NCBI RefSeq assembly: GCF_963921235.1
Contig: NC_086108.1
Location: 32,924,001-32,988,000 of the forward strand
DNA: 64,000 nt
Direction of reading: 5' to 3'
Source of the DNA: Mobula hypostoma
Lineage: Eukaryota
Shown: positions 32,694-36,274 of the stretch, piece by piece
Numbering within the stretch: the stretch's first letter is position 1
How the letters are laid out: every line of letters starts with the position of its first letter
The notes under the pieces: model-generated
Databases searched by the model: none
The model's input: only the letters and a program-made list of their open reading frames with translations
Told to the model about the DNA's origin: nothing
Program-made: the position numbers and the translations under genes

Positions 32694-32940
32694 TGTTGCA
32701 TATTTAATATTCCAATAATATTCGAGTAATCTTCTGTATATAATGGGTGATTAAGCATTCTTGTTCATTTAGATAAATCTTACTGACTCTATGTAAAACT
32801 ATGTGAATTACGTACGTCATCACGCTGCCATGTGATACGTGCATGCCTCGCTTGAAGTAAAGATGAAGTTACACCTGCATTTTGGACTCCCGTGTCTTTC
32901 TCTGAATAAGTTTAATGCTTTGAAATTACAAAAAATAACA
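32694..32940 (+). repeat. 5' LTR
   Basis: tgttgcatatttaatattccaataat...tttgaaattacaaaaaataaca, homologous to 36024-36274. Confidence 0.9.
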
Positions 32941-33169
32941 TACCAACGAGGTATTTTTAAAGCAAACCTGATATGGTTGTCGACCTGTTGAAGTGCAGCA
33001 AGACGCTCGAACTAACAAAAATCGCAGTGAGTGAAAATAAATGCAGCCCAGCACATACAGAGTAGGTCTTCAGAAGGAAAGACATGATCAAGTTTATAAA
33101 AAAAACTGTAAATGGAAGAATTCAGTTTTCATAAAGAATGAGTACTGGGTGATAATAATCATCAATAAA

Positions 33170-34050
33170 GGCAGAAATAGCTGCTTTGATTACACACCAG
33201 GCAATTGGCTCATGAATACTGAGTTATTGGATCAGTATTTTGAAGCAAATGAAATAATCAATGAGAAGCGAGTTCTAATTTTGCTGAGTGCATTGGATTT
33301 AAAGGCATACAGTTTGCTTCAAAGTTTGACTGCTCCAACCAAACCAGCTGGAATGAGCTTTCCTGACATTTTCAAAGTAATGCAGGAACATTTAGAACCA
33401 AAGACATTGTTGATTGCAGAATACTTTAGGTTTCATAAGTGGAATAAAAAACAAGGGGAGTCCATTTCAGTGTATGTGGCTGAATTGCCGACCTTGAGCA
33501 TTGGCAATTTGTAATGGGCTTAATGATACACTAAGAAATTGTTTAGTTTGTGGAATCTGAAAAGAAAGCATTCAAAAATGGGTCCTAACTGATAGCACAG
33601 TTTACTGGAAGTAACTGTTTTAATGGAAACAGCAGACAGAAACGCAATTGAGTTGCAGTCAGGAATAAAAGTTAGTGTGATCAGAATTGCATCGAACATC
33701 AAATTAATTAAAATGGAATTCGACACTGGTTCAACTGTTTCAGTCATTCCACAAAATGAGACTAAAAGCCATTTCAAAGATACTAAAGTGAAGCTTCCAG
33801 ATACCAAATAAGAACTTAAAATGGAGAAAAGATAACTCCTGTGGGAATGACATTCATAACAGTGAAATACAACAACTAAAAGGCCACATTGAGTTTGTAT
33901 GTAGTAAAAACAGAAAGGCCTGCATTGTGGGGCAGTGATTGGCTGAGACAACTACAATTCGATTGGAGATCCATCCACAACTTGCATGCCACATCCCCTG
34001 CAATGGAGCCACCTGCAAACAAATGGAAAAAGATACTACTGAATGATGCC
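33170..34050 (+). pseudogene. Decayed Gypsy gag and aspartic protease
   Basis: Gag-like QYFEANEI...LLSAL...AYSLLQSLTAPTKP...EHLEPK...IAEYFRFHK...QGESISVYVAEL; protease IKMEFDTGSTVSVIP (DTG motif); PALWGSDWLRQLQFDW. Contains stops and frameshifts. Confidence 0.85.
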
Positions 34051-34055
34051 AAAAC

Positions 34056-34243
34056 TTTCTCCATCCTGAACACCATGAACTATTGCCTAACAGAAGGCAA
34101 TCAGGTGTAGGTGCCAACCTCTGTGCCGCTGGTTGGAAGGTACATTGGACCAAAGAAGGACCATGCTGCCCAGAGGACTTACGAAAGTGATGAAAGCAGT
34201 GGTTCGACTACAATAGTTTTTATTGGCAACATAGATGAGAAAG
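34056..34243 (+). pseudogene. RBM25: RBM25 processed fragment, 5' part
   Basis: From 34111: VPTSVPLVGRYIGPKKDHAAQRTYESDESSGSTTIVFIGNIDEK, versus human RBM25 as recalled VPTVSMVGKHLGARKDHPGLKAKENDENCGPTTTVFVGNISEK. The 5' boundary is approximate. Confidence 0.8.
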
Positions 34244-35297
34244 GACCCAGGCTGTAAAAATAGGGGACAAGCTCTCCTCTACAATCACTCTGAGCACCGG
34301 TGCCCCACAAGGCTGTGTATTCATCCCCCTGCTGTACCCACTGTACACCCATGATTGTGTGGCCAAGTTTCCATCAAACTCAATATATAAGTTTGCTGAT
34401 GACACCACAATTGTAGGCCATATCTCTGGTAATGATGAGTTTGAGTACAGAGAGGAAATTAAGAACCTGGTGGCATGGTGCAAAGTCAATAACCTATCCC
34501 TCAATGTCAGCAAGATGAAGGAATTGGTTGTTGACTTCAGAAGGAGTAGTGGACTGCACGACCCAATTTACATCGGTGGTGCACAAGTGGAACAGGTCAA
34601 AAGCTTTAAGTTCCTCGGGGTCAATATCACAAATGACCTGACTTGGCCCAACCAAGCAGAGTCCACTGCCAAGAAGGCCCACCAGTGCCTTTACTTCCTG
34701 AGAAAGCTAAGGAAATTTGGCCTGTCCTCTAAAACCCTCACTAATTTTTATAGATGCACCGTAGAAAGCATTCTTCTGGGATGCATCACAACATGGTATA
34801 GAAGTTGTCCTGTCCAAGACCGGAAGAAGCTGCAGAAGATCGTGAACACGGCGCAGCACATCACACAAACCAATCTTCCGTCCTTGGACTCACTTTACAC
34901 CGCACACTGTCGAAGCACCGCTGCCAGGATAATCAAAGACACGACTCACCCAGCCAACACACTTTTTGTCCCTTTTCCCTCGGGGAGAAGGCTCAGGAGC
35001 TTGAAGACTCGTACGGTCAGGTTTGGGAACAGCTTCTTTCCAACTGTGATAAGACTGCTGAACGGATCCTGACCCGGATCTGGGCCGTACCCTCCAAATA
35101 TCTGGACCTGCCTCTGTCCTTTTGCACTGCGTTACTTCCCCTTTTCTATTTACTATTTATGATTTATAGTTTAAATTTTTAATATTTACTATCGATTTGT
35201 AATCCAGGGAGCGCGAAATGTAGAATCAAATATCGCTGTGATGATTGTAGGCTCTAGTATCAATTGTTTGGCGACAATAAAGTAAAGTAAAGTAAAG
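34244..35297 (+). mobile_element. Young 5'-truncated Rex1/Babar LINE inserted in the RBM25 fragment
   Basis: Uninterrupted 237-aa ORF with YKFADDTT and ...RFGNSFFPTVIRLLN, a (TAAAG)n tail, and AAAG at both junctions (34240-34243 and 35294-35297). Confidence 0.92.
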
Positions 35298-35719
35298 CTT
35301 CTGCTGTGCTTAGCAGGCAGTTACTTGTGAAATGTGGCATGGTTTAAGCTGGAAGGTAGTTCAAGGAGCTTCAGGAAAATTGCAAGCACATGTCTTTTGT
35401 GAGTATAAAGAACCAGAATCTACTCTACGTGCATTAAGGTTATTGCATGAATTTCAAGTGGGAGACAAGATGCTACTTGAAAAGTAGATGCAATGACCAA
35501 GCCCAGTTGGATGAATGGAGGGCAAAATAGAAAGGAGTCAATAGGGAAACGAAAACAAAGGATTTGACAGATGATGTTGTGGATGTAGAAACAATGAGGA
35601 GAAATCAATTCATAAAGGGAGCAACAGAAAGATTAATAAGAGAATATTCCAGTGAACTAAATGGACCTTCCTACAATCAAAATGCACAAACTAGAAGTAA
35701 ATGGAAGGAGAAGGAAGAT
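35298..35719 (+). pseudogene. RBM25: RBM25 processed fragment, 3' part (RRM and downstream helix)
   Basis: Manual translation across frameshifts gives ASAVLSRQLLVKCGMV/SWKVVQGASGKLQAHVFCEYKEPESTLRALRLLHEFQVGDKMLL/KVDAMTK/QLDEWRAK*...IKGATERLIREYSSELNGPS...KEKED, matching RBM25 FCEYKEPESTLRALRLLH and LIREYSSELN. Confidence 0.9.
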
Positions 35720-36023
35720 GGCTACTGATGTCAGAGCCAATTCCTACAGTCTCAGAGTCAACTCCTCAAACCACCATGGAGGAGGCCCCAGAACCTCAGT
35801 TTGTTTCACAACCACAAGTCTCACCTGCCAAGCAGAGTGACCTCCCTCATCAGGAAAGACATTATCCAGCAGGAGTAAGAAATCCTCCACAGCGATTAAA
35901 TCTTTAGGCCTGATTGAGACTGTTTGGATGTCTGTATATAGTAGCTGTATTATATAATATACTGTGTACATAGTTGAGATACATTTTACATTGAGCTGGA
36001 GGTTATAGCTAAGCAGGGAGGAG

Positions 36024-36274
36024 TGTTGTGTATTTAATATTTCAATAATATTTGAGTAATCTTGTATATATATATATATGTTAATTAATCATTCTTGTTC
36101 ATTTAAATAATTAATTGGGTTACATGTAAAACTACATGAATTGCATATGTCATCACGTTACCACGTGATACGTGCCTGCCTCATTTAAAGTAAAGGGGAA
36201 GTTACACCCACATTCCCAGAGTCCGCTGTCTTTCTTTGAATAAGTTTAATGCTTTGAAGTGACAAAATATAACA
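36024..36274 (+). repeat. 3' LTR
   Basis: tgttgtgtatttaatatttcaataat...tttgaagtgacaaaatataaca, preceded by a polypurine tract. Confidence 0.9.

Follow-up and report, generated by a model that had tools for sequence, protein, structure and literature searches.

The stretch of DNA considered here, called the window in what follows, comprises 64,000 nucleotides (nt) of the genome of Mobula hypostoma (NCBI RefSeq assembly GCF_963921235.1, contig NC_086108.1, positions 32,924,001 to 32,988,000 of the forward strand) and contains, at 32694-36274, a long terminal repeat (LTR) retrotransposon of the Ty3/Gypsy type that carries a fragment of the host gene RBM25 between its two LTRs. The order of its components is LTR, gag, protease, RBM25 piece, C-terminal tail of pol, polypurine tract, and LTR, all of them on the forward strand of the window, and none of the reverse transcriptase (RT), RNase H, and integrase of the element is found between the window LTRs. 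The family to which this copy belongs was very probably founded by a double template switch of RT between Gypsy RNA and RBM25 mRNA, giving rise to a non-autonomous element that was subsequently amplified. A preliminary description of the locus, made from the letters of the sequence without database searches, had already claimed the same order of components between the LTRs, an insert corresponding to the N-terminal RNA recognition motif (RRM) region of RBM25 read across frameshifts and a stop, the origin of this insert from a spliced mRNA, the lack of a poly(A) tail and of a target-site duplication (TSD) of its own, and its uptake by RT template switching followed by a possible amplification as a family; these claims are borne out by the results given below, and two of its boundaries needed revision.

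The nature of the cargo follows from tblastn with P0001, a 220-residue RBM25-like protein used as query, whose residues 1-65 match 34063-34245 (E 1e-20) and whose residues 64-206 match 35294-35719 (E 3e-29), the match passing through stops and frame changes. Of the 259 candidate proteins for the open reading frame (ORF) at 35314-35487, 257 match at E ≤ 0.001, and the named proteins among the best 120 of these matches are mostly RBM25, at 81-87% identity. The short ORFs of the cargo gave no Pfam family at the cut-off (RRM_1, E 0.034), and a PDB sequence search with the RRM piece returned generic RRM proteins only, for instance U2AF65 at E 0.012. In the source genome of 3.48 Gb, the host RBM25 gene occupies C1:99791418-99840627 on the minus strand, and the continuous sequence of the element aligns by blastn to its separate exons X, C, D, E, and F at 82-88% nucleotide identity. 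From 5' to 3', the cargo comprises the last 3 nt of exon B (ACT, 34054-34056, from a three-way sequence comparison), the 48-nt cassette exon X (34057-34104, 86% identical to C1:99832632-99832584), and the first part of exon C (34105-34243, 86.5% identical to the host by blastn and also recovered by tblastn), in which a TAG stop lies at 34108-34110. Beyond a nested insertion, it continues with the second part of exon C (35298-35328, tblastn and blastn to host), exon D (35329-35388, ends approximate, 86% identical to C1:99827252-99827194), exon E (35389-35544, ends approximate, 88% identical to the host and 87% identical to P0001 in amino acids), and exon F (35545-35700, truncated at its 3' end, 82% identical to C1:99819431-99819280), with exons C-E jointly spanning the RRM. 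The host introns and the B-to-X interval, of 1.7-5.8 kb, are absent from the element, and thus five exon joints of host RBM25 are crossed in the window copy and eight over the longest copies. Moreover, at HAAQR and ESDESSG the element agrees with the gene of its own genome, where P0001 differs. The cargo derives from the spliced RBM25 mRNA of its own genome. Its 3' end lies in exon I, near residue 380 of an RBM25 of approximately 820 residues, and is joined straight to the pol tail, and neither a poly(A) tail nor a TSD is present around the RBM25 insert in the window copy. In many fish assemblies, short RBM25 forms that end in the intron past exon G (..KFRDTHKV..) are also found (P0003-P0059); they look like a conserved truncated isoform and bear no relation to the element.

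Two small, frame-preserving cassette exons lie between host exons B and C, namely B2 (30 nt, L015:7476-7505) and X (48 nt, L015:2586-2633). The B-B2 joint, with GT..AG ends, appears in contigs from three sequencing runs, and the B2-X joint, with the same kind of ends, in contigs from two runs; the type of run was guessed as RNA, and the exon joints skip 4.8 kb and 0.9 kb. In addition, loose contig ends at the donor of exon X continue with the first bases of exon C. These contigs show that X is a genuine exon, and the cargo preserves an old splice form of RBM25 that has the 48-nt exon X and lacks the 30-nt exon B2. In the part of exon X that is aligned to P0001, 14 of 14 residues are identical, despite the differences that P0001 displays elsewhere. 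Within an RBM25 intron, at L015:4868-5081, the summed contig depth is 765-1,587 in three runs, where there is presumably a highly repeated and possibly expressed element.

The 5' junction can be read by setting host, chimeric, and autonomous sequences side by side. Host exon B ends in ..CCTGCCACAACT/gtaagt, also written as ..TGCCACAACT/gtaagt (the slash marking the exon end), the non-autonomous copies read ..GATGATGCCACAACT/GTCTCC.., and the 18 aligned autonomous copies read ..GATGATGCCACAGCAGTG.., ..GCCACAGCAGTG.., ..GATGATGCCACAGCAGTGTTC.., or a close variant. The 7-nt sequence TGCCACA, which appears as TGCCAAA in the window (34047-34053), is common to the end of exon B and to the protease/RT boundary of Gypsy. 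The three bases ahead of exon X are ..CT in five of six chimeras, whereas they are ..CA in all 18 autonomous copies. Since the chimeras carry the last bases of exon B, the junction of exons B and X is part of the element, and the break has to be placed in the shared TGCCACA at 34047-34053, inside exon B and 3-10 nt from the exon end. The protease region of the window copy aligns to an autonomous copy at 82% up to 34047, and RBM25-derived sequence begins within 34047-34054. Thus, of the limits given in the preliminary description (34056-34243 plus 35298-35719), the assignment to RBM25 is confirmed and the start at 34056 has to be moved upstream. The 5' switch is in phase, as the reading frame of GCC ACA is shared by Gypsy (..DDAT) and RBM25 (..TPAT), and the frame at 33880-34110 runs from the protease through exon X to the TAG just within exon C.

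At the 3' junction, host exon I starts with AGAGAAAAGCCGAGAAAAGGAGAAGAAAAGGGAT, the autonomous copies read ATTATT(A/G)GAGAAGAAAGGTG, and the chimeras read ..GAGAAAAGGAGAAGAAAGGT.. followed by the tail. In the three-way alignment of host, non-autonomous, and autonomous sequences, 9-10 nt, GGAGAAGAAA (window: GGAGAAGGAA), are common to the start of exon I and to the integrase tail, and these shared bases locate the 3' switch at window 35707-35716, past the H-I exon joint. This switch is out of phase, and the C-terminal tail of Gypsy pol (the integrase end) follows at 35717-35907, as part of an open frame at 35701-35907. Immediately upstream, at 35697-35706, other copies are longer by at least 100-140 bp and contain pieces of exon H, and in two copies exon G too, while exons G and H are missing from the window copy and from L002-L008. 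In the longest copies, exon F is followed by exons G and H and by approximately 30 nt of exon I, where the cargo stops. Since exons G and H are kept in other copies, the window carries the joint of a later, secondary internal deletion (approximately 35697-35706) beside the original junction. The purine-rich 3' junction that had been placed at about 35705-35720, and described as compatible with both partners, therefore corresponds to the original junction at 35707-35716 together with the joint of the later deletion. The original capture was about twice the length of the piece left in the window copy, and the long form of the cargo is known from two copies, L037 and L043.

The chimera is a multi-copy element. 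Genome searches returned 1,933 first-look candidates for a query spanning the 5' junction and 2,757 for RBM25 plus the 3' junction, counts which, like the others of this kind, are not validated copy numbers; in both searches, 40 of the 40 scored candidates matched (80-83% and 80-85% identity, respectively, apart from the place of the window itself), and all those of the first search cross the junction. A search with the segment specific to the long form gave 443 first-look candidates, the 40 scored yielding 41 matches at 68-82% with the exception of its own locus. The pol tail and the protease/RT boundary of autonomous copies gave 4,991 and 929 first-look candidates, respectively, with all 40 scored matching in each case. 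Both junctions are present in the seven copies fetched. Moreover, of 29 loci chosen solely by their pol tail, 18 contain RBM25 exons and seven integrase, and among the 18 RBM25-bearing loci nine have pieces of exon H, exon G being present as well in two (L037 and L043). The autonomous relatives encode RT_RNaseH_2 (1e-25), Integrase_H2C2 (6e-6), and rve (4e-9) upstream of the common tail, and in them the sequence of the RT start follows the protease; the backbone is Ty3/Gypsy. A further non-autonomous derivative of the same Gypsy, at L052, has no RBM25; besides gag and protease it retains part of RT (YLDDIIV..) and the tail. Six contigs from a single run of another organism cross the 5' joint, from exon X to Gypsy sequence.

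Over most exons, the identity between the copies and the host gene is 80-92%, and the comparison of the two window LTRs, which the preliminary description had suggested as a means of dating the insertion, gives a p-distance of 0.195 and a Kimura two-parameter (K2P) distance of 0.23 over 246 aligned nt, with 82-88% identity by block. Taken together, the LTR pair and the exon identity correspond to roughly 0.12 substitutions per site per lineage, an uncalibrated measure of age; the family is old. No open cargo frame exists in any copy examined, and a protein search with the protease end for longer proteins returned one candidate, which was not significant.

In the origin proposed here, the founder would have had its RT, RNase H, and integrase replaced by approximately 1.1 kb of spliced RBM25 mRNA, comprising the end of exon B, exon X, exons C-H, and about the first 30 nt of exon I, which amounts to the whole RRM plus the RE/RD-rich region. 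Synthesis of minus-strand cDNA on Gypsy RNA would have proceeded through the pol tail, RT would then have jumped at GGAGAAGAAA onto a co-packaged RBM25 mRNA and copied it 5'-ward from exon I to the end of exon B, and finally it would have returned to Gypsy RNA at TGCCACA, just past the protease. The resulting chimera would have retained the LTRs, primer-binding site, gag, protease, and polypurine tract, and autonomous relatives could have mobilized it in trans until it numbered about a thousand copies or more; both this mobilization and the order of the two switches are presumed from the structure of the copies. Sublineages would afterwards have shed parts of the purine-rich cargo, and the window copy, which is old, decayed, and of the shortest form, has in addition gained an insertion of a long interspersed nuclear element (LINE) and lost the zinc knuckles of gag.

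As a chance expectation for the microhomologies at the two junctions, 300,000 junctions were drawn at random, each pairing a point in one autonomous copy (2,690 nt) with a point in the host mRNA (1,364 nt); 200 of them had a microhomology of at least 7 nt (6.7e-4) and 18 had one of at least 9 nt (6e-5). Both microhomologies are far longer than chance gives. Several observations weigh against the proposed origin and have to be set beside this result. The microhomologies are taken from diverged copies, not from the founder, and the lengths given for them may be off by 1-2 nt. The direct B-X joint seen in the element is not among the joints listed for four runs, which show B-B2-X and also B2 reading straight into exon C. 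The window copy is not bordered by a clean TSD, its flanks being ATACC and ACATA, and a search for copies with both LTRs among the sampled loci, in order to read the TSD, gave no usable case. The family size depends on the unvalidated candidate counts mentioned above. Finally, sequence alone cannot separate RT template switching from the microhomology-mediated joining of cDNAs.

This last point is the basis of the alternative that survives best, in which the joints were made at the DNA level between Gypsy cDNA or DNA and an RBM25 cDNA, by microhomology-mediated end joining or by recombination. Microhomologies of 7 and 9-10 nt are equally typical of such joining. However, two separate joinings in the same orientation, exactly replacing the pol core, would be required together with a free, intron-less RBM25 cDNA, whereas template switching yields the whole structure in one reverse transcription and is the documented route for such chimeras (PMC5131818). 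Joining at the DNA level is, therefore, regarded as very unlikely.

Marginally less probable again is a 5' joint made by splicing, of the type known from retroviral oncogenes. A Gypsy copy residing in the RBM25 intron upstream of exon X would have been transcribed by read-through and spliced from a cryptic donor past the protease to the acceptor of exon X, with the 3' joint alone arising by template switching. Similarity to the host at first appeared to begin exactly at this acceptor (cccttttcag/GTCTCC), which is used in real spliced contigs, and a GT stands immediately past the break in 13 of 18 autonomous copies. However, the ACT ahead of exon X is the end of host exon B (..CACAACT/gtaagt) and not Gypsy sequence, which has GCA in 17 of 18 copies and ACA in the other one, and the B-X joint lies within the element, with the break in exon B. 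Moreover, the putative donor (GCA/GTGTTC) is a poor fit to the donor consensus, and no remnant of a family LTR, of gag-protease, or of the pol tail exists inside the gene, the B-X introns included, the sole LTR match being found about 36 kb upstream of exon A. A splice-made 5' joint was rejected because the chimeras hold the last 3 nt of exon B.

The weakest alternative, a LINE-made processed pseudogene of RBM25 inserted into an already deleted Gypsy, would agree with the activity of LINEs in this genome, one of them inside this very copy, but it is scarcely credible given that there is no poly(A) or TSD around the RBM25 part, that the cargo is devoid of the 3' part of the mRNA and begins in exon B (the second coding exon), which is the opposite of LINE 5' truncation, and that microhomology with intact Gypsy sequence exists at both joints.

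The remaining parts of the window copy are as follows. The 5' LTR (32694-32940) and the 3' LTR (36024-36274), both with TG..CA ends, form a colinear direct repeat. A family LTR at L019:6648-6892 (C1:99876648-99876892) lies on the opposite strand about 36 kb upstream of host RBM25. A degenerate primer-binding site, TACCAACGAGGT, is located at 32942-32953, and its counterparts in four other copies, one base past the LTR, are TGGCGATGAGGT, TGGTGATGAGGT, TGCCATGAGGT, and TGGAATAAGC, three of these four copies having TGG at its start. The open frame of gag, of 157 amino acids (33041-33514), is homologous to the gag region of other copies and gave no Pfam family at the cut-off (best PNMA, E 0.017). 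A deletion point at 33691-33700 is private to the window copy, in which approximately 330 bp are gone in comparison with the other copies; the lost segment encodes both CCHC zinc knuckles of gag as well as the beginning of the protease, and at least one intact CCHC motif is still read at this point in three of the five other copies translated. The protease region, with DTGS at 33722-33733, and the last Gypsy-only sequence occupy 33701-34046, and the polypurine tract, AAGCAGGGAGGAG, is located at 36011-36023, directly 5' of the 3' LTR.

The LINE insertion at 34244-35297 is a 3' fragment situated inside exon C of the cargo, which contains the C-terminus of an RT (Pfam RVT_1, 2.1e-11, and PF09004, 6.6e-11) and a (TAAAG)n tail, and shares 89.5% identity with another LINE copy, found in L034. 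It is not present in any of the seven other copies examined, in which 34243 joins 35294 directly, and its insertion site displays a 4-bp AAAG overlap. The LINE fragment is younger than the cargo and private to the window copy.

Regarding the product of the founder, the in-phase 5' switch implies that it could have encoded a fusion of Gag, protease, and RBM25 that included the RRM and the RE/RD-rich region. It is doubtful that this fusion was more than passive cargo, although its RNA-binding module might have aided the packaging of the RNA of the defective element or its copying by the enzymes of the autonomous partner, or the thousands of copies of RBM25 exons might feed small RNAs acting on the host gene. 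If true, the former would explain the 18 RBM25-bearing versus seven integrase-bearing loci among those sampled through the tail.

The kind of accident described here is already known, and the copy number and the clean junctions are the notable part. A single genome contains both donors, the gene and the element, against which the two switch points can be read, and this makes the family a clean record of the mechanism, and such a chimera can grow into a major repeat family, beyond a one-off retrocopy. In practical terms, anyone annotating genes in this genome or in related ones will come across numerous RBM25-like fragments which are in fact transposon cargo. Among the papers listed by a full-text literature search, none describes a capture of RBM25 of this type.

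Among the known elements with which the RBM25 chimera can be compared, Bs1 of maize is present at low copy number. Like the RBM25 element, Bs1 is described as a non-autonomous mobile LTR element with host gene fragments, but it is a plant element and carries pieces of three host genes (Elrouby and Bureau 2001, 2010, cited after PMC5131818 and PMC13317346). Crocodilian endogenous retroviruses with KIT-ligand and nectin3 also form a vertebrate LTR lineage that captured host mRNA and then multiplied; they differ in being retroviruses, with nectin3 replacing env, six insertions reported, and ORFs under purifying selection (PMC4299795). In contrast to them, the RBM25 element is a Gypsy without RT, RNase H, and integrase and with no open cargo frame in the copies examined.

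Another host mRNA is carried by a Gypsy copy of the same genome, L058 (C59:53254950-53256350), whose cargo is SUDS3 and likewise begins just past the protease, some 12 codons downstream of its motif ..LDWHTIKAL and at or near the SUDS3 start codon. It differs in its cargo and in its Gypsy lineage, which has no blastn similarity to the RBM25 family. When the genome was searched with Pfam Sds3, there were 331 first-look candidates, and 119 matches were obtained. Together with this SUDS3 carrier, the RBM25 family suggests that the Gypsy elements of this host lineage may take up host mRNAs unusually often.

The closest counterpart is provided by the LTR-mediated retrocopies of animals, for which a double template-switch model has been put forward (Tan et al. 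2016, Genome Res 26:1663, PMC5131818). These retrocopies likewise consist of an intron-less piece of host mRNA in place of part of the internal ORFs between two LTRs, display microsimilarity at both fusion points (with a median of 6 bp), contain a partly copied mRNA with no poly(A), and can retropose again as pseudo-LTR elements (PMC5131818). The cases presented there are young and occupy one or a few insertion sites (PMC5131818), whereas the RBM25 chimera constitutes a family with candidate counts in the thousands, nested deletion sublineages, and a divergence of about 0.12 substitutions per site per lineage. The RBM25 element is, in these terms, an LTR-mediated retrocopy turned into a pseudo-LTR family.

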